Below, one piece after another: positions 2,489 through 56,257 of a DNA stretch of 64,000 nucleotides. A program made the position numbers and the translations under genes. Position 1 is the stretch's first letter, and the number at the start of each line of letters is the position of its first letter. The notes under the pieces are model-generated. The model saw only the letters and a program-made list of their open reading frames with translations. It searched no databases and had not been told where the DNA came from. Source of the stretch: a virus (Duplodnaviria > Caudoviricetes); IMG/VR virus record IMGVR_UViG_3300031669_005479, positions 128,001-192,000 of that record; one strand, written 5' to 3'.

Positions 2489-4840
2489 ATGAATAAATCA
2501 CAACGAATTTATTTAACTACAGGCAACACAGGTAATTTCATAAATGATAAGTATGTTAAGGTAAAGCTTGAGCAAAATGTTGAAACACTTGAACTTCTTA
2601 CGCTAAGTCTAACTACCGAGGATGCATATCAAAATTTCAATTCTGATTATGGAGTAATTGTTGGAAGAGTATACGCTAATGGTGGAGTTGCGGTTCCCAA
2701 TGCTAAAATAAGCGTTTTTATACCATTATCTGATACCGATGCATTTAATGGTGATATCTATAGCATCTATCCATATACTAGTCCTAGAGATAAGAATAAT
2801 GATGGAAAACGATATAATCTACTACCACGTGTTGCGCTACTTGAGGCAAGCACTGGAATATATAAACCTAAACAACCTTTCGGTAGTTTTCCAATAAAAC
2901 CAGAATTAATAATAAATGAACCATATTTAAATGTATATAAAAAATATTATAAATATACTTCAGTAACAAATGATTATGGTGATTATATGATATTTGGTGT
3001 ACCAATTGGAACACAAACTGTCCATATGAGCGTTGACATAACTGATATTGGAAAATATAGTATGACACCTGCATCAATGATAAAAGCAGGTTATCCAGCA
3101 AATTTATTTACTAAATCAGGTAATGCGATTAAACCTAGTGACGATTTAAATGATTTACCTAATATTGAAACGCAAGAAATTAGTGTAGATATTCTTCCAT
3201 TTTGGGGTGATACAACCAATTTTGAAATTGGAATTACTAGACAAGATTTTAGAGTTAAAGCAAATCTTAGTTCAGATTTTGTTGTATTCGGAACATCAAT
3301 GACAATGGGTGTGTATGGTATATTTGGTAATGCTGCATATAGTGGTGATGATAGGGCATACTATTCAATTGATACTGATAATGGTGGCATGACGACAAAT
3401 AATATATTTTCTGACGGTAATACTGTTGGCCGATATAACAACCTTGATATAAGAACATTTAGAGTAGCAAAACCAACAATTAGCGTATTTACTTATACCA
3501 ATGATATTCCTGTTGTTAATGGAGAAATTCAACTTCCTGCAGATAATGACATTGACTTCGATAGCCAGATACGCCAGCTATCAGATACGGAATATTTCGA
3601 ATATAATGAAAATGGTAATTTTTTTCTAACCATACCCTGCAATAGAGCCAAGGTAATTACTGATGAAAATGGTCAAGACGTGTATATTGACGAGAATTCG
3701 CCAAGTGGTGTATTTACCAAATTTTTTGGTATGATACTTATTGAATATCCAGATTTAAATGACATGCCACAAAATTCTGGTTGGTCACATAAATTTTTTG
3801 GTCGTGATAATGAATATAAGGCACGTGGTTGGTTTAAAATACCACAAAGTGTTGGTTTATTGAGTGATATCAATCAAGACGATCCTAATGGTATTTATCC
3901 TCCAGAATACATTACTGCAAACAATAATGCATGGAGAAGAGAGTATCAGGAATTCAGCGGTGGTAGCATTTATAGTGTTGCACAATTCTATCCAACCAAA
4001 TGGGGTGCTAGTGGTGCTGGTGGTCAGAATTTTGAAAACAGTTTCACCAATAGTAGCAATGTTGGTTATAACTATGCTGAAATTGCAGGTGCTTGGTTTA
4101 AAACTGCAGGATTGGATTGGGTAGTTCAATCAGAACAAACCGATAGCCAAAACTATCTTGTACAGCCATATAGTGGTAGCAGCACAACTCCAACATACTA
4201 TAAATATAATTTCTCGCCCAATGTTGTTAATTTTAATTCCAGTCTTCCAGCATATAGTGCAGATACATTCTTTGGTGGTCAATGGCTAAATTTCTGCCTA
4301 ATGTTTCCACAATACGGTTGGTCGTATGGTAATCATCTTAACTTTGCCGATGTTTACCATAACGATTTTGAAGGTGGTTCACCTAACTTTGTTACCGATA
4401 ACCAGCAGAAAATATTTGCAGGTTTAGTTAATACCAAGTTCCTATTGAAGGGTGATGCGTTTCAAACCGCATTTATTAACCTGCCTAAGCTAGAACTTTC
4501 TAAGCTGCTTCAAGTAGATTTAAAGGGTATTAATGTTACTAGATGGAATAATGGACAAGAAAAGGATATAAATGAAAATTATAATTATCATGACATTCAA
4601 CTTACGCCAAACTACTACAAGTATGCAAAAGTAAAGGAAAGAAGTTCATACTTTTCGAGCAATACTGATGGACGAACCTACAATGCCTTTGGCTGGGATG
4701 AGTGGGATAGGTCACCAAATGCCTATACATATCCATACAATGCATATATTTCTAGTACAGATAATAGAAGTGCCTACCTATTTAAGGGCATGTATGGAAA
4801 TGATTGTATAAAAATGCTATCGGACTTTGGTGTGATTTAA
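2489..4840 (+). CDS. Putative virion structural protein (baseplate/tail associated), 783 aa
   Basis: Long ORF with late-type motif AGTATTTAT at 2465-2473; N-terminal VIVGRVYANGGVAVPNAKISVFIP resembles a prealbumin-like beta-sandwich; adjacent to the sheath gene. Confidence 0.5.
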   Translation: MNKSQRIYLTTGNTGNFINDKYVKVKLEQNVETLELLTLSLTTEDAYQNFNSDYGVIVGRVYANGGVAVPNAKISVFIPLSDTDAFNGDIYSIYPYTSPRDKNNDGKRYNLLPRVALLEASTGIYKPKQPFGSFPIKPELIINEPYLNVYKKYYKYTSVTNDYGDYMIFGVPIGTQTVHMSVDITDIGKYSMTPASMIKAGYPANLFTKSGNAIKPSDDLNDLPNIETQEISVDILPFWGDTTNFEIGITRQDFRVKANLSSDFVVFGTSMTMGVYGIFGNAAYSGDDRAYYSIDTDNGGMTTNNIFSDGNTVGRYNNLDIRTFRVAKPTISVFTYTNDIPVVNGEIQLPADNDIDFDSQIRQLSDTEYFEYNENGNFFLTIPCNRAKVITDENGQDVYIDENSPSGVFTKFFGMILIEYPDLNDMPQNSGWSHKFFGRDNEYKARGWFKIPQSVGLLSDINQDDPNGIYPPEYITANNNAWRREYQEFSGGSIYSVAQFYPTKWGASGAGGQNFENSFTNSSNVGYNYAEIAGAWFKTAGLDWVVQSEQTDSQNYLVQPYSGSSTTPTYYKYNFSPNVVNFNSSLPAYSADTFFGGQWLNFCLMFPQYGWSYGNHLNFADVYHNDFEGGSPNFVTDNQQKIFAGLVNTKFLLKGDAFQTAFINLPKLELSKLLQVDLKGINVTRWNNGQEKDINENYNYHDIQLTPNYYKYAKVKERSSYFSSNTDGRTYNAFGWDEWDRSPNAYTYPYNAYISSTDNRSAYLFKGMYGNDCIKMLSDFGVI

Positions 4841-50238: not shown

Positions 50239-50544
50239 ATGACAAATAACAAACATAGACTTTTTGAACTTATGGAAAAAGTTAACCCTAACTTCAAAAA
50301 TGAAGATGTACTACAAAAAACAACAGAACCAGTTCCTACAGATGTTGCAAATCTTGAAAAGGCAGTAAAATCTTCAAGTTCTGTTCAATATGCAGATTCT
50401 CGTATTGATACACCAAAGGAATTCGAATTTGCATTTAAGGATTGGTTGAGTGGTACGGGTTTTCATCCACAAAAAAATCCAATATCTATTTCTCAAGCGC
50501 AAAGTTTTGTTAAAAATGCAATGGAAAGTTTAGGATATAAATAA
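50239..50544 (+). CDS. Late protein with N-terminal KHRLFELMEKVNPNF tag
   Basis: AGTATTTAT upstream; tag shared with three other ORFs. Confidence 0.6.
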   Translation: MTNNKHRLFELMEKVNPNFKNEDVLQKTTEPVPTDVANLEKAVKSSSSVQYADSRIDTPKEFEFAFKDWLSGTGFHPQKNPISISQAQSFVKNAMESLGYK

Positions 50545-50559
50545 TTTTTTTAAAAAATG

Positions 50560-50590
50560 CTTGTATTTATAATTTTATTATATATCTTTG
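50560..50590 (+). promoter_or_regulatory. Bacteroidota sigma-A-type promoter for tRNA cluster 1
   Basis: CTTG-N19-TATCTTTG matches the -33 TTTG / -7 TAnnTTTG consensus. Confidence 0.65.
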
Positions 50591-50628
50591 TATCGATTTT
50601 GTTTATACATAGTTTTAAAGTTTTAGTT

Positions 50629-50703
50629 ATGAAAAATTTAACACATACACAACCCCAACCGAAACAACAGCCACAAATTGTTGAATGGGGAAGTTATGCT
50701 TGA
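50629..50703 (+). CDS. Putative attenuator leader peptide (MKNLTHTQPQPKQQPQIVEWGSYA)
   Basis: 5 Gln, 3 Pro and 1 His codons ahead of Pro/His/Gln tRNAs; contains GAATGGGG, a copy of the terminator 3' arm. Confidence 0.75.
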   Translation: MKNLTHTQPQPKQQPQIVEWGSYA

Positions 50704-50733
50704 ATTTTTCGAAAGATGATTTTAAGTGAAAAA

Positions 50734-50764
50734 AACCCCATTCTTAATTGAATGGGGTTTTTTT
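50734..50764 (+). terminator. Attenuator terminator 1
   Basis: AACCCCATTC-ttaatt-GAATGGGGTT followed by a T run, between the leader and the first tRNA. Confidence 0.85.
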
Positions 50765-50821
50765 GTAACAAAAAAATTTTTATTTCGTACAATAGTTCAT
50801 TGACATATTAATATTTTATAT

Positions 50822-50896
50822 CTAGGTGTTCCGCAGATGGATATACGGGCGTGCCTTGGAAGCACGTGTTCGCAGGTTCGAATCCTGCTACCTAGA
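50822..50896 (+). tRNA. trnP: tRNA-Pro(UGG), copy 1
   Basis: Acceptor CTAGGTG/TACCTAG, anticodon arm CGTGC-CTTGGAA-GCACG, TTCGAAT loop. Confidence 0.85.
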
Positions 50897-50981
50897 GGTA
50901 ATCAAATTAAACTACCTGCACGTGGTGATTACTGCACGGTTGAATAAACCGACCAAATGTTTAATGTATAATATATATGGT

Positions 50982-51491
50982 ATGAGTAATATAAGCGATA
51001 TACTTAAAGAAGCAAAAAGTAAAGGATATTATGCCGATGAATATGGTAAAATTTATTCAGCGAAGAAATTAATTTCATTACGAAATAGAGATAATCGGTT
51101 AAATTTTACCATAAGATATTATGGAAAAAGAGTTACAATTGCCGTACATAAGTATGTTGCATATTTAAAATATGGTGATAAAATTTTTGATGATGGTATT
51201 GAAGTAAGACATTTAAATGGAAATTCGCTAGATAATTCATATGAAAATATTTTAATTGGAACTCATAGCGATAATATGCTTGATATTCCAAAAAATGTTA
51301 GAATAAAAAAAGCAATATCAGCATCAAGTAAAAATAGAAAATTTGGTGATGATATCATTAAGAATATTATGAATGATAAAAATAATGGTATGTCATATAG
51401 TAAATTATGTGAAAAATATAATACAAGTAAATCGACATTAAGTTATTTATTTAATAATGCGTATTATAGTGGTGCTAGAAATATAGAGTAG
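50982..51491 (+). CDS. HNH homing endonuclease
   Basis: VHKYVA...EVRHLNGNSLDNSYENILIGTHSDN; stop overlaps the next tRNA; start could be 50964. Confidence 0.8.
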   Translation: MSNISDILKEAKSKGYYADEYGKIYSAKKLISLRNRDNRLNFTIRYYGKRVTIAVHKYVAYLKYGDKIFDDGIEVRHLNGNSLDNSYENILIGTHSDNMLDIPKNVRIKKAISASSKNRKFGDDIIKNIMNDKNNGMSYSKLCEKYNTSKSTLSYLFNNAYYSGARNIE

Positions 51492-51557
51492 TAGCGCAGT
51501 TGGAAGCGTACCGCATTTGGGATGCGGGGGTCGTGAGTTCGAGTCTCACTTACTCTA
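51485..51557 (+). tRNA. trnP: tRNA-Pro(UGG), copy 2
   Basis: Acceptor AGAGTAG/TTACTCT, CCGCA-TTTGGGA-TGCGG, GTGAG-TTCGAGT-CTCAC. Confidence 0.9.
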
Positions 51558-51565
51558 CTAAACAT

Positions 51566-51637
51566 GGTGATTGAAGCATTAAAGTGATGCGTCAGACTGT
51601 GAATCTGAAGAAGACGGGTCAGTACCGTCCTTTCACC
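51566..51637 (+). tRNA. trnH: tRNA-His(GUG), atypical
   Basis: TCAGA-CTGTGAA-TCTGA, G-1/C73; two U.U mismatches in the acceptor stem and a non-canonical T loop GTCAGTA. Confidence 0.65.
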
Positions 51638-51642
51638 CAAAT

Positions 51643-51707
51643 ATCGATTCTACAATCGATAAATATATATTATCGGTTGTAGAATCGATAAATATATATT
51701 TATCGAT
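51643..51707. repeat. Nested inverted repeats (20-bp hairpin + perfect 24-bp palindrome)
   Basis: ATCGATTCTACAATCGATAA-atatata-TTATCGGTTGTAGAATCGAT overlapping ATCGATAAATATATATTTATCGAT. Confidence 0.85.
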
Positions 51708-51870
51708 GTGATAGACGGCAAATGAGTTGGTGTTAAAGAAGACATAACCAAAGATAAGTTAAATAATCTTAGAGTAGATGTAATGCAGAAGATACGAAAA
51801 GATATTGTAGATGGTAAATGTCAATTATTTACATACGAAAGAAAATTTTATTAATTAATTAATATAATAC

Positions 51871-51944
51871 TGTCTCGTGGCGCAATCGGCTAACGCTCCT
51901 GACTCTGAATCAGATGACTACGGGTTCGAATCCTGTCGAGACAA
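51871..51944 (+). tRNA. trnQ: tRNA-Gln(CUG)
   Basis: TGTCTCG/CGAGACA acceptor, loop CTCTGAA; C27.A43 mismatch. Confidence 0.85.
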
Positions 51945-52006
51945 CAATAGTATTTTTTTGCAAAAAGTAGCATTTTTCGATACTTTCCGCAAAATATAAC
52001 TAATAT

Positions 52007-52091
52007 TGACCTCTGGTGGAATTGGCTAAACACAACTGTCTTTGAAGCAGTCGTCCGTAAGGATTTGCAAGTTCGAGTCTTGCGAGGTCAA
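52007..52091 (+). tRNA. tRNA with UUG (Gln) anticodon and long variable arm
   Basis: TGACCTC/GAGGTCA, ACTGT-CTTTGAA-GCAGT, variable arm TCC-GTAA-GGA. Confidence 0.8.
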
Positions 52092-52222
52092 CAAAAATAG
52101 GGTAGAATGGTGAGACAGCTTCCCCTCGGACTAAAGGCATCAGGATTTGACGATGCCGATGTGAAGCATAGGTCAAGCAATGCATTGACTTAGGTCGAAC
52201 CAAGAAAATCGAGGTTATTTAT

Positions 52223-52295
52223 TGCTATGTAGTGTAATGGTTTAGCACAAGTGACTTTGAATCACTTAGTTACAGTTCGAATCTGTACATAGCAA
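52223..52295 (+). tRNA. trnQ: tRNA-Gln(UUG), canonical
   Basis: TGCTATG/CATAGCA, AGTGA-CTTTGAA-TCACT. Confidence 0.9.
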
Positions 52296-52304
52296 CTATT
52301 TTTA

Positions 52305-52386
52305 ATGTGGAAGTTAAAAAAATTCATTATTTTTACAAAAACATTATGTGGAAGTTAAAAAAATTCATTATTTTTACAAAAACATT
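52305..52386 (+). repeat. Exact 41-bp tandem duplication
   Basis: ATGTGGAAGTTAAAAAAATTCATTATTTTTACAAAAACATT twice. Confidence 0.9.
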
Positions 52387-52389
52387 ATT

Positions 52390-52773
52390 ATGAAGTATAA
52401 CCTATATCTTGATGACTTCCGTGACCCCATAGATTCTGCATATTATCTTAATAATCCTATTTATGAAACACTTCAATGGATTGTTGTTAGAAATTATGAT
52501 GAATTTATTAAGTGTGTTATAGAAAATAGTATTCCAGAAGTAATATCCTTCGATCATGACTTGGCAGCAACACATTATGACCATCAATCTAATATAGAAT
52601 ACGATGTATTTACAGAAAAAACTGGTTATGATTGTGCTAAATGGTTTATTGATTATGTGATTGATAATAAATCGAAACTACCAAAAACAATACTTATTCA
52701 TTCGATGAATCCTGCTGGAAGTGCTAATATTAAATCGCTATTTGATAGTTATATTAAATCATTAAATCTGTAA
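52390..52773 (+). CDS. Cyclic-phosphate processing receiver-like domain protein
   Basis: LYLDDFRDP...VRNYDEF...ISFDHDL...TGYDCAKW...HSMNPAG..NI; start moved past the duplicated upstream segment. Confidence 0.75.
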   Translation: MKYNLYLDDFRDPIDSAYYLNNPIYETLQWIVVRNYDEFIKCVIENSIPEVISFDHDLAATHYDHQSNIEYDVFTEKTGYDCAKWFIDYVIDNKSKLPKTILIHSMNPAGSANIKSLFDSYIKSLNL

Positions 52774-53746: not shown

Positions 53747-54649
53747 ATGAAAATTACTATTGATTATCTTAAAAAAATTAGGGCTTGTGATGAAGCAATT
53801 GCTAGGTTTAACAACACACCTGAACTACATTCAGTTAATATTGAAAAATCAACTGAAATTATTGTTGGTGATGTATCATTATTTAATGATATTAATTGGT
53901 TAGTTAATAAGTTAAAAGGTAAACTGCCTGTTAGAAAGTTAACCTATAAAGGTTCTGATGGTTATTGGTCAGAAATGACTTATGATGATAATGGAAATAA
54001 GTTAACATATAAAAATTCTGATGGTTATTGGTTAGAATATACCTATGATGAAAATGGAAAATTGTTAACCACTAAAAATTCTGATGGTTATTGGTTAGAA
54101 TATACCTATGATGATAATGGAAAATTGTTAACCACTAAAAATTCTGATGGTTATTGGGAAGAAAACACCTATGATGATAATGGAAATAAGTTAACACATA
54201 AGAAATCTAATGGTAGTTGGGAAGAAAACACCTATGATGATAATGGAAATAAGTTAACATATAAAAATTCTGATGGTTATTGGGAAGAAAACACCTATGA
54301 TGATAATGGAAATAAGTTAACATATAAAAATTCTAATGGTTATTGGGAAGAAAACACCTATGATGATAATGGAAATAAGTTAACATATAAGAATTCTGAT
54401 GGTTATTGGGAAGAAAACACCTATGATGATAATGGAAATTTGTTAACCACTAAAGATTCTAAAGGTTATTCGTGTGAATATACCTATGATGAAAATGGAA
54501 ATAAATTAACCTATAAGGATTCTAAAGGTTATTCGTGTGAATATACGTATGATGAAAATGGAAATAAATTAACCAATAAGGATTCTAATGACAATATTAC
54601 TGATTACCCTAAATTAAAATATGATTTGACTATTTTTGAAATAAAATAA
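53747..54649 (+). CDS. YD-like tandem-repeat protein (10 x 21 aa)
   Basis: Repeat KLTYKNSDGYWEENTYDDNGN (63 bp). Confidence 0.8.
   Translation: MKITIDYLKKIRACDEAIARFNNTPELHSVNIEKSTEIIVGDVSLFNDINWLVNKLKGKLPVRKLTYKGSDGYWSEMTYDDNGNKLTYKNSDGYWLEYTYDENGKLLTTKNSDGYWLEYTYDDNGKLLTTKNSDGYWEENTYDDNGNKLTHKKSNGSWEENTYDDNGNKLTYKNSDGYWEENTYDDNGNKLTYKNSNGYWEENTYDDNGNKLTYKNSDGYWEENTYDDNGNLLTTKDSKGYSCEYTYDENGNKLTYKDSKGYSCEYTYDENGNKLTNKDSNDNITDYPKLKYDLTIFEIK
53936..54591 (+). repeat. 63-bp coding tandem repeat, about 10.4 copies
   Basis: Directly visible; several copies near-identical. Confidence 0.9.
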
Positions 54650-54710: not shown

Positions 54711-54741
54711 TTTGCAATTATTGTAACATTTTATACCTTTG
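54711..54741 (+). promoter_or_regulatory. Bacteroidota sigma-A-type promoter for tRNA cluster 2
   Basis: TTTG-N19-TACCTTTG. Confidence 0.75.
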
Positions 54742-54789: not shown

Positions 54790-54879
54790 ATGAAAAATTT
54801 ACTCGACATATTAATGGCAACTTTGGTGGAAGTCCTATTATGGGCAGACGCAGAGGATAAATTACGCACAGTCGGGTAA
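54790..54879 (+). CDS. Putative attenuator leader peptide (MKNLLDILMATLVEVLLWADAEDKLRTVG)
   Basis: 19 of 29 codons are L/D/A/V/E/W, the amino acids of the downstream tRNAs; ends in AGTCGGGT, a copy of the terminator 3' arm. Confidence 0.8.
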   Translation: MKNLLDILMATLVEVLLWADAEDKLRTVG

Positions 54880-54908
54880 TGTATATTACACACTCCTTTC
54901 TTAATAAG

Positions 54909-54943
54909 AAAAACCCGACAAACGAAAGTAAGTCGGGTTTTTT
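54909..54943 (+). terminator. Attenuator terminator 2
   Basis: AAAAACCCGAC-aaacgaaagtaa-GTCGGGTTTTTT between the leader and tRNA-Asp. Confidence 0.85.
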
Positions 54944-54983
54944 GATTTTTAGGTTGGATGTTCTTTGACATGTTGGAAATTTT

Positions 54984-55060
54984 GGTGATGTAGTTCAGTT
55001 GGCTAGAATGGGGCACTGTCTATGCTCAGGTCGAGGGTTCGAGTCCCTTCATCACCGCCA
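54984..55060 (+). tRNA. trnD: tRNA-Asp(GUC), CCA encoded
   Basis: GGTGATG/CATCACC, GGGCA-CTGTCTA-TGCTC, G73, CCA. Confidence 0.92.
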
Positions 55061-55076
55061 AATTATAATATTAAAT

Positions 55077-55160
55077 GCGGCGTTATACAAGTGGCTAAAG
55101 TGGCAAGACCTTCAATCTTGTATCGAAAGATTTCGAGGGGTTCGAATCCCCCACGCCGTA
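55077..55160 (+). tRNA. tRNA with UUC (Glu) anticodon, C33 and long variable arm
   Basis: GCGGCGT/ACGCCGT, CAAGA-CCTTCAA-TCTTG, variable arm ATC-GAAA-GAT, Tyr-like D loop AAGTGGCTAAA. Confidence 0.7.
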
Positions 55161-55255
55161 CGAAGTTCAATATGAAATATAGTGGTTTCAGAGGTTTGTT
55201 CATATTGAGGTTTAGTAATTCCAAGGTCGATAATAATGACCAAAAATCTCGCCAT

Positions 55256-55327
55256 GCTCGATTCGTCTAACGATTAGGACAAATGGTTTTCGTCCATTAA
55301 ATGAGGGTTTGATTCCCTCATCGAGTA
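55256..55327 (+). tRNA. trnE: tRNA-Glu(UUC)
   Basis: GCTCGAT/ATCGAGT, AATGG-TTTTCGT-CCATT. Confidence 0.85.
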
Positions 55328-55335
55328 CAATAATT

Positions 55336-55406
55336 TGGGGAATTGATGTAATGGTAGCGTGTTTGGCCTACATCCAAAACGAAATAGTTCGATTCTATTA
55401 TTCCCT
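55336..55406 (+). tRNA. trnV: tRNA-Val(UAC), atypical (C33, U1.U72)
   Basis: TTTGG-CCTACAT-CCAAA, AATAG-TTCGATT-CTATT. Confidence 0.75.
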
Positions 55407-55418
55407 ACAAAATAAATT

Positions 55419-55493
55419 GCGAGTGTAGCCGAATGGTTAATAGGCAACTGTTTTAGAAACAGAAATTTGCGGGTTCGACTCCCGCCATTCGCA
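55419..55493 (+). tRNA. tRNA with UAG (Leu) anticodon and short variable loop
   Basis: GCGAGTG/CATTCGC, (A)CTGT-TTTAGAA-ACAG(A), 5-nt variable region, A73. Confidence 0.75.
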
Positions 55494-55516
55494 CAAAGGG
55501 TTAAAAACAAAACTAT

Positions 55517-55603
55517 GGGGATGTGATGAAATTGGCGATACATGCCAGACTTAGAATCTGGTGCTAATAAACTGGCGTGTGGGTTCGAATCCCACCATCC
55601 TCA
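55517..55603 (+). tRNA. trnL: tRNA-Leu(UAG), canonical class II
   Basis: GGGGATG/CATCCTC, CCAGA-CTTAGAA-TCTGG, long variable arm, A73. Confidence 0.92.
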
Positions 55604-55716
55604 CGTTTAGACCGTTTAGAATTTTTATTAGTAATGAAAATGCTAGTAAACATAAAAGTTGTTCAATCACATTGGATGAATTATTGACGAGAATTAAAAT
55701 GTGGAATGTGAAATAT

Positions 55717-55791
55717 GGGGCGTTAACTCAGTCTGCCTAGAGTGCTGCACTTGCAATGCAGAGGTCATCGGTTGAAATCCGATACGTTCCA
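55717..55791 (+). tRNA. trnA: tRNA-Ala(UGC)
   Basis: GGGGCGT/ACGTTCC with G3.U70, CTGCA-CTTGCAA-TGCAG. Confidence 0.92.
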
Positions 55792-55848
55792 CGAGTAGAC
55801 CGTTTTAGAATTTTTTATTGACTAAGAGTAACGTAGAAAAATTCATAT

Positions 55849-55922
55849 GGCTCTGTAGCCGAACTGGAATAGGCAACTGTTTTAAAATCAGAAATTTGTG
55901 GGTTCGAGTCCCACCAGAGCTA
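55849..55922 (+). tRNA. tRNA with UAA (Leu) anticodon and short variable loop
   Basis: GGCTCTG/CAGAGCT; body paralogous to the 55419 tRNA; weak anticodon stem (CTG/CAG). Confidence 0.7.
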
Positions 55923-56081
55923 CAAATCGTCTGGAGATTCCAGACAAAGTTTTTATAGTAAAATTTATTATTGTTTAATGAATGAAATTGAGTTACATGT
56001 TATTGATACTACAGAACAAAAATGTTTTAAAAAATGTATCTCTGAAAAGTATTTAAATATGATTATTAATATCATTAATAC

Positions 56082-56164
56082 ACGTCCGTAGGCATTGGTA
56101 AGCCAAACAGTCTCCAAAACTGCAACCCGAAAGGGTCTTGCTCGTTCGAATCGAGCTGGACGTG
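56082..56164 (+). tRNA. trnW: tRNA-Trp(CCA) with long variable arm and 4-bp anticodon stem
   Basis: ACGTCCG/TGGACGT, G73, (A)CAGT-CTCCAAA-ACTG(C), variable arm ACCC-GAAA-GGGT. Confidence 0.82.
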
Positions 56165-56257
56165 CTAATTTTTATAAATTTTGTAACATTTTGAATAGAG
56201 TATACGTATCATAAGAATCATTTAGTATTTTATTAATTTTGTAAAATTTATAAAGTT

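Follow-up and report, generated by a model that had tools for sequence, protein, structure and literature searches.

Leader region of the Pro/His/Gln tRNA array

The window analysed here is a stretch of 64,000 bases (128001-192000) of the 202,814-base IMG/VR phage record IMGVR_UViG_3300031669_005479, whose completeness is estimated by CheckV at 66%. It carries an array of Pro, His and Gln tRNA genes which is preceded, at 50561-50764, by a promoter, a short open reading frame (ORF) with many Pro, Gln and His codons, and an intrinsic terminator. We refer to this leader and its array as unit A. It is one of four similar units in the record: units A and B are located within the window, units D and E beyond it. 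Below we argue that the leader is probably a ribosome-mediated attenuator of the tRNA genes behind it. All elements of units A and B are on the + strand.

Promoter A (50561-50590) reads TTG-N19-TATCTTTG and corresponds to the Bacteroidota -33/-7 type. This motif occurs in 51 copies genome-wide against 28 +/- 4.7 expected. It is located 35-55 nt in front of the leader ATG in all four units and is also kept upstream of the leaders of related phages. A sigma-70 promoter scan and a simple terminator scan gave nothing useful at the unit A site; the terminator escaped the simple scan because its A and T runs extend the stem and thereby absorb the tail.

Leader ORF A (50629-50703) starts with the ATG at 50629, comprises 24 codons and ends with TGA at 50701-50703. 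Its product is MKNLTHTQPQPKQQPQIVEWGSYA. Four CAA codons are present along with CAG, CCC, CCG, CCA and CAT, so that Pro, Gln and His account for 9 of the 23 residues following Met1. The ORF is followed by terminator A (50729-50764), which consists of an A run (50729-50735), the 5′ arm CCCCATTC (segment 3, 50736-50743), the loop TTAATT, the 3′ arm GAATGGGG (segment 4, 50750-50757) and a T run (50758-50764). RNAfold predicts it as a 15-bp hairpin of about -20 kcal/mol, and the fold of the whole leader has a z-score of -5.1.

The sequence of the terminator 3′ arm is also found near the end of the ORF. GAATGGGG at 50683-50690 (segment 2) ends 10 nt before the stop codon and can serve as the 5′ strand of an antiterminator, with segment 3 as its partner. 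Unit A thus has two copies of GAATGGGG and a single copy of its complement CCCCATTC. About one copy of this 8-mer would be expected in the window, both strands counted; five are present, three of them within 75 nt. Segment 1, CCCCA at 50653-50657, lies within the codons CAA-CCC-CAA, and in the minimum free energy (MFE) structure of the leader folded alone its partner is the UGGGG of segment 2. Finally, the stretch around the stop codon, UUGAAUUUUUC (50700-50710), pairs with the start codon region (50629-50641) in the full-length MFE structure. The same helix is predicted in two relatives (G001 and G002), and it could restrict translation to the first, polymerase-coupled ribosome by limiting re-initiation.

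The preliminary description of this DNA had listed a promoter, a 24-residue ORF with just these Gln, Pro and His codons, an intrinsic terminator after it, and a late-leader 8-mer at 50683-50690 identical to the terminator 3′ arm and complementary to the 5′ arm. All four elements are present, the 8-mer being an exact match; the promoter is of the Bacteroidota type and is not sigma-70-like.

Units B, D and E

Unit B has the same layout. Its promoter motif, TTG-N19-TACCTTTG, is located at 54712-54741 and is followed by leader ORF B (54790-54879), coding for MKNLLDILMATLVEVLLWADAEDKLRTVG; Leu, Asp, Glu, Val, Ala and Trp together account for 19 of 28 residues. According to the predicted fold, segment 1 is UACUCGAC in codons 4-6 (54800-54807). 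Segment 2, GUCGGG (54871-54876), is the complement of segment 3 and abuts the TAA stop codon. Terminator B (54908-54943) is formed by segment 3, CCCGAC (54914-54919), and segment 4, GTCGGG (54932-54937), with a T run, so the last codons of the ORF, GTC GGG TAA, include a copy of the terminator 3′ arm (CCCGAC...GTCGGG). The array behind it (54984-56165) contains, according to ARAGORN, tRNA genes for Asp, Glu, Glu, Val, Leu, Leu, Ala, Leu and Trp. In the spacer that separates the stop codon of leader B from its segment 3, CTCCTTTCTT is conserved, at 54893-54902 here and in unit B of the relatives; its predicted partner is the A run in front of the terminator, and it resembles the 3′ end of 16S rRNA.

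In unit D (L056:916-1057), seven Lys and three Tyr codons are among the 30 codons of the leader, and two Lys tRNA genes follow it. The 40-codon leader of unit E (L056:10636-10811) consists almost wholly of Thr, Arg, Asn, Ile, Ser, Gly, Phe and Cys codons. As the contig ends three bases past the T run of the unit E terminator, array E is missing from the record. In two complete relatives (G001 and G002), leader E is followed by tRNA genes for Thr, Cys, Asn, Ile, Ser, Phe, Gly and Arg.

Leader composition matches the downstream tRNAs

Four amino acid sets were defined from the downstream tRNAs, and 1042 short ORFs taken at random from all six frames of this AT-rich genome were used as the null. 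Each leader is enriched in its own set. Pro/His/Gln make up 9 of 23 residues in leader A against an expected fraction of 0.078 (binomial P 3e-5, empirical P 0.005), and Asp/Glu/Val/Leu/Ala/Trp 19 of 28 in leader B against 0.316 (empirical P 0.002). In leader D, 10 of 29 residues are Lys or Tyr (0.132 expected, empirical P 0.006), while 34 of 39 residues in leader E belong to the Thr/Cys/Asn/Ile/Ser/Phe/Gly/Arg set (0.454 expected, empirical P 0.002). Binomial P values range from 3e-3 to 7e-8 across the four leaders. The z-score of a leader for its own set is between +2.8 and +3.5 and for any other set at most +0.7; Pro, His and Gln are wholly absent from leaders B and E.

Two more distant phages were also compared. 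G003 has a single mixed array covering all amino acids, and the 56-codon ORF upstream of it (L037:1302-1527, corresponding to G003 3302-3527) contains all 20 amino acids, with a chance probability of 0.027. The 3′ part of this ORF is complementary to the 5′ arm of the terminator that follows, giving the same antiterminator/terminator layout. In G004, one candidate leader precedes Ser-Gln-Met-Tyr-Asn-His tRNA genes, and its enrichment, counted by hand, is only suggestive.

Conservation of the leaders in related phages

When compared with cultured phages by blastn, the sequence matches at its tRNA genes only, and therefore has no close cultured relative. In four public sequencing runs compared with it, only fragmentary contigs of this phage and its relatives are present, which carry no information on transcript starts, ends or levels; two runs labelled RNA-Seq are probably DNA. 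A related-locus search with the 101-residue ORF upstream of unit A found no relatives, and an exact-sequence search for the unit A terminator gave no match. Relatives were recovered through the conserved gene located 3′ of array A, which codes for a cyclic-phosphate-processing receiver (cREC) domain. The complete ones are 362-365 kb long and have 45-55 matches each to the Rfam tRNA model. Pattern scans of IMG/VR added at least 8 further unit B leaders and at least about 20 further unit A leaders from many samples, class A leaders now being known from at least about 30 contigs. The gapped pattern used for unit B was too loose: real leaders were present in 14 of the 118 returned loci and were picked by script.

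All four units are found again in at least eight related phages. In eight relatives, a similar leader (core consensus Pro-Gln-Pro-Gln-Gln-His-Pro-Gln) and a terminator stand in front of the Pro-His-Gln array; units B, D and E are also found wherever the contig is long enough to include them. The ORF of leader A is open in all relatives examined, and its length differences are whole codons. Variation within the Pro-Gln-His core is for the most part synonymous and at third positions (CCC/CCG/CCA, CAA/CAG); CCCCAA is kept, while the other Pro codons vary. Outside the core the leader peptides change freely, largely within the cognate set of amino acids.

Alternative pairings and covariation

In each of the 25 leaders compared, from nine genomes, a stretch near the end of the ORF can pair over 7-12 bp with the 5′ arm of the terminator that follows it. 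An upstream complement of at least 7 nt accompanies only about 10% of the 144 terminator-like hairpins of the present genome.

The pairing of segments 2 and 3 covaries. In unit B (14 sequences), 90% of the alignment cells of this helix are paired, and three pairs, with 11 cells, have changed on both sides. The covariation score is 0.146 against 0.060 +/- 0.020 after shuffling, a value reached in 0 of 500 shuffles, and controls with slid positions score far lower. The terminator helix scores 0.113 in the same sequences, so the antiterminator is as well supported as the terminator itself.

The 23 sequences used for unit A were chosen via the peptide core, without selection for the RNA arms. Eight core pairs of the 2:3 helix are 91-100% paired, and two compensatory changes occur. 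One is seen in L198, where GAACGGGG as segment 2 faces CCCTGTTC as segment 3 and the encoded Trp is replaced by Arg; in the divergent G005, GGTGAGG stands opposite CCCCACC. The terminator A helix is 97% paired with three compensatory pairs. In most unit A sequences the terminator 3′ arm is GAGTGGGG, which introduces a G.U pair, and segment 2 is still a perfect complement of segment 3. An additional base pair that would extend the unit A antiterminator (alignment columns 7 and 79) was considered and found to be without support. GAATGGGG is kept even where the stop codon overlaps it (L220) or where it is read in another frame (G002/L299), which indicates a constraint on the RNA and not on the Glu-Trp-Gly peptide.

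The predicted folds change as the transcript grows, and they do so in the same way for units A and B in three genomes. Before segment 3 is made, segment 2 is held by segment 1 (1:2). With segment 3 added, the MFE structure contains the 2:3 helix, formed in unit A by GAAUGGGG with CCCCAUUC, and the full-length transcript returns to 1:2 together with the terminator.

The position of segment 2 relative to the stop codon differs between the units: it ends 10 nt before it in A, at -1 nt in B and 18-24 nt before it in D. If a ribosome is assumed to cover about 12 nt downstream of its A-site codon, one stalled at the cognate codons would leave segment 2 free, and a terminating ribosome would reach into it in units A and B and in most of the E leaders.

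Proposed mechanism

We propose that the leader is a ribosome-mediated leader-peptide attenuator which couples transcription of the tRNA array to decoding speed; from the sequence comparison and the predicted folds, we put the probability of this reading at about three in four. For unit A it would mean that the phage probably makes its Pro, His and Gln tRNAs only when ribosomes read the corresponding codons slowly. A his/trp-type attenuator had already been suggested in the preliminary description. The comparative data favour it: the ORF, the terminator and their complementarity are kept in related phages, compensatory substitutions occur in the antiterminator of units A and B, and the predicted folds pass from anti-antiterminator to antiterminator to terminator. 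The covariation of leader composition with tRNA content, which the description had named as a check, holds within the genome, where each of the four leaders matches its own array and no other. The mechanism itself is inferred.

The sequence of events in unit A could be as follows. Host RNA polymerase would start at the Bacteroidota-type promoter and transcribe the 24-codon leader. With plentiful charged Pro, Gln and His tRNAs, the first ribosome would reach the stop codon and cover part of segment 2 (GAAUGGGG); without translation of the leader, segment 2 would be held by segment 1. In both cases segment 3 (CCCCAUUC) would pair with segment 4 and transcription would end at the T run. When the Pro, Gln and His codons at positions 6-14 are decoded slowly, the ribosome would stall upstream and leave segment 2 free to capture segment 3 once it is made. 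No terminator would then form and polymerase would proceed into the tRNA genes for Pro, His and Gln, whose products would relieve the stall, resulting in a negative feedback which matches phage tRNA output to decoding demand.

Alternative explanations

A conserved motif, GTTCATTGACAT (consensus GTTCTTTGACAT), is located at 50795-50806, about 20 nt in front of the first tRNA gene of array A. It is present in unit B at 54960-54971 and, in several genomes, between the terminator and the first tRNA gene of units A, B and E, as well as at other sites of the tRNA region. It is possibly a second promoter or an RNA-processing site. It could not be read as a canonical host promoter, its spacing to any TTTG -33 box not being constant. 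The motif is an argument for an explanation in which the short ORF and its terminator form a separate small transcription unit or an insulator, while the arrays start at GTTCTTTGACAT and are not gated by the leader; terminators in front of tRNA arrays are indeed common. We consider this unlikely, as it would leave unexplained both the four ORFs mirroring their own tRNA sets and the complementarity, with compensatory changes, between the ORF end and the terminator 5′ arm. In addition, the motif stands at variable distances from the T run (0 to about 30 nt), does not have the TA of a TAnnTTTG box, is absent from unit D of the present genome and occurs elsewhere too.

Two other explanations were considered. 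The leader might be an RNA-only switch set by a ligand, such as a riboswitch, a PyrR-like protein-binding attenuator or a T-box-like tRNA-binding leader, with an incidental ORF. The alternative pairings, real and covarying, would suit such a switch, and Rfam gives a weak match to the PyrR binding site (RF00515; 34.1 bits against a gathering score of 54). No Rfam family reaches threshold in the unit A leader, however: the PyrR match, like one to Thr_leader, is below threshold and driven by the terminator and generic hairpins, and the T-box covariance model has no match in 50540-50830 even at E up to 10. Neither an open ORF nor a particular composition would be needed by an RNA-only switch, yet in every leader listed the ORF has stayed open through many substitutions and length changes of whole codons, and in four units its composition follows the tRNA set behind it; we consider this explanation highly improbable. 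It is also quite improbable that the leaders are translated and sense decoding but act through something other than intrinsic termination, e.g., Rho-dependent polarity, processing or stability of the precursor RNA, or functional small peptides. The unit B peptide is fairly conserved and hydrophobic, and the geometry of unit D does not fit a simple masking model, as this explanation would allow; but every leader has a canonical G+C-rich hairpin with a T run behind it, these hairpins covary, and the antiterminator competes for exactly the terminator 5′ arm.

Several observations weigh against ribosome-mediated attenuation as we propose it. If GTTCTTTGACAT is a promoter, the attenuator could not be the sole control of the arrays. 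There is no classical signal of purifying selection over whole leaders: no excess of third-position variation is seen (73, 68 and 75 variable columns by codon position), and 809 of 1023 pairwise codon differences between leaders are non-synonymous. Such even variation is expected for leader peptides, yet it is no proof of translation. The match between leader and array also has its gaps. In G006, array B has been mostly replaced by protein genes and a transfer-messenger RNA (tmRNA) gene, yet the Leu, Val, Ala and Glu codons of the leader are kept, and array D of the present genome is devoid of a Tyr tRNA gene despite three Tyr codons in leader D. Leaders are thus not always updated when an array changes, arrays decaying or being invaded faster than leaders adapt. 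At the RNA level, the nearly invariant arms of unit A provide only thin covariation, and segment 1 is clear for units A and B only, not for D and E. In unit D, 18-24 nt separate the end of segment 2 from the stop codon, so that a terminating ribosome would leave this segment uncovered; the simple masking model, as far as predicted structures allow, fits A, B and most of E but not D.

tRNA genes of array A and their surroundings

The arrays of this large phage hold dozens of tRNA genes and have been invaded by homing endonucleases. Array A begins with tRNA-Pro(UGG) at 50821-50897 (ARAGORN; Rfam, 46 bits). It is followed by a homing-endonuclease gene of the HNH_3 family (50982-51491; Pfam PF13392, E 2.6e-9), the 3′ end of which overlaps a second tRNA-Pro(UGG) gene (51485-51558; ARAGORN and Rfam). 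In relatives, similar homing-endonuclease insertions are found at other points of the array, e.g., in the gap between the leader A terminator and the first tRNA gene in G002. A tRNA-His(GUG)-like gene with the anticodon GTG is located at 51567-51637. It is recognised by Rfam only (36.3 bits against a gathering score of 29), has no ARAGORN call and, when aligned with the His genes of relatives, shows a non-canonical T arm; it is possibly decayed. The last three genes, tRNA-Gln(CUG) at 51871-51945, an 86-nt tRNA-Gln(UUG) with a long variable arm at 52007-52092 and another tRNA-Gln(UUG) at 52223-52296, were found by both ARAGORN and Rfam. The array had initially been given as Pro, Pro, His, Gln(CUG) and two Gln(UUG); the Pro and Gln genes stand, the His gene is atypical and seen by Rfam alone, and the HNH_3 gene between the Pro genes is to be added.

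Long paired variable arms recur in this region. tRNAs of 84-88 nt with such arms are present for Gln, Glu, Trp and Lys, which normally have short ones (52007-52092, 55077-55161, 56082-56165 and L056:1078-1165), and they often adjoin a normal-length copy with the same anticodon. Relatives have long-arm tRNAs for Pro (96 nt), Val, Cys, Asn, Ile and Thr.

The AT-rich stretch between the His-like and Gln(CUG) genes (51641-51715) contains repeated ATCGATAAATATATAT units and an inverted TCTACAATCGAT / ATCGGTTGTAGA pair. Directly 3′ of the array is the cREC-domain gene (52390-52773; PF20274, E 1.7e-21), whose position is kept in all relatives. Just in front of it, at 52306-52387, a 41-nt unit is duplicated in tandem, which creates two alternative GTG starts with the first 13 residues identical. 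Further downstream, between units A and B, 53747-54649 codes for a 300-residue protein of RHS/YD-type repeats.

In relatives, the tRNA region 3′ of unit B includes the phages' own tmRNA genes (L006:8673-9027; L047:4939-5303, Rfam 97 bits; also L009 and L010). No tmRNA gene was found in the window. Four relatives, G001 (L033), G002 (L036), G003 (L038) and G009 (L054), have a tRNA with the anticodon CTA, i.e., an amber suppressor, labelled 'Pyl' by ARAGORN, which suggests that TAG may be translated in part of these genomes; no tRNA with this anticodon was found in the present incomplete record.

Comparison with known attenuators

The leaders of ilvGMEDA (Ile/Leu/Val) and thr (Thr/Ile) have the same short ORF of mixed codons, mutually exclusive 1:2/2:3/3:4 pairings and a terminator in front of the genes, with the position of the ribosome deciding between the outcomes. 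The phage leaders differ from them in preceding tRNA genes instead of biosynthetic enzymes, in being phage-borne with Bacteroidota-type promoters, and in covering 19 amino acids with four units; the sequences are not similar, and none of the Rfam leader families is matched at threshold. With trpL and hisL, units A and B share the predicted order of folds (1:2, 2:3, 1:2 plus terminator) and a stop codon near segment 2. The trpL and hisL leaders sense one amino acid by tandem identical codons, whereas three codon families are interspersed in leader A (Pro-Gln-Pro-x-Gln-Gln-Pro-Gln).

Genes of the translation apparatus are likewise tuned to charged tRNA via a terminator and an antiterminator in pheST, with its pheM leader, and by T-box riboswitches. 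However, pheM controls a synthetase and not tRNA genes, and T-boxes bind uncharged tRNA directly with no need for an ORF. The genes downstream of leader A are tRNA genes and a homing endonuclease, unlike the biosynthesis or synthetase genes of all classical attenuators. Judged by sequence and modelled structure, the leaders show the open ORF, cognate codons, terminator and antiterminator expected of ribosome-mediated attenuation, an anti-antiterminator being predicted for units A and B, and differ in the class of their target, the multivalent ilv and thr leaders being the closest.

Phage tRNA genes are usually treated as constitutive cargo which adjusts codon usage or replaces degraded host tRNAs. 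Arrays such as those of the present phage, with dozens of tRNA genes in one large genome, are of the kind seen as compensating for codon bias or for the loss of host tRNAs. To our knowledge, the regulation of phage tRNA genes is largely unknown, and no description of leader-peptide control of tRNA genes, either in phages or in cells, was found in the freely accessible full-text literature.

A wider role can be suggested, tentatively and with considerable doubt. The four leaders, which cover 19 amino acids (all but Met) and each gate their own tRNA block, might constitute a complete sensor of decoding capacity that lets the phage rebuild whichever part of the tRNA pool is failing, including parts lost to host anticodon nucleases or other tRNA-targeting defences. 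They would then provide an inducible and self-limiting counter-defence and not only an adjustment of codon usage. cREC domains are tied to RNA-repair contexts, and the neighbouring cREC-domain gene fits the counter-defence theme without proving it.

If the proposed attenuation is true, decoding speed would feed back directly on tRNA supply through these leaders, and a textbook mechanism would gain a new class of targets and reach Bacteroidota-type hosts. The leaders also give a testable rule, by which the composition of a leader predicts the tRNA content of the operon behind it; leader E, located at the cut end of the contig, is followed by the matching array in complete relatives. The leaders may, in addition, offer compact parts for sensing the decoding capacity of chosen codon families.

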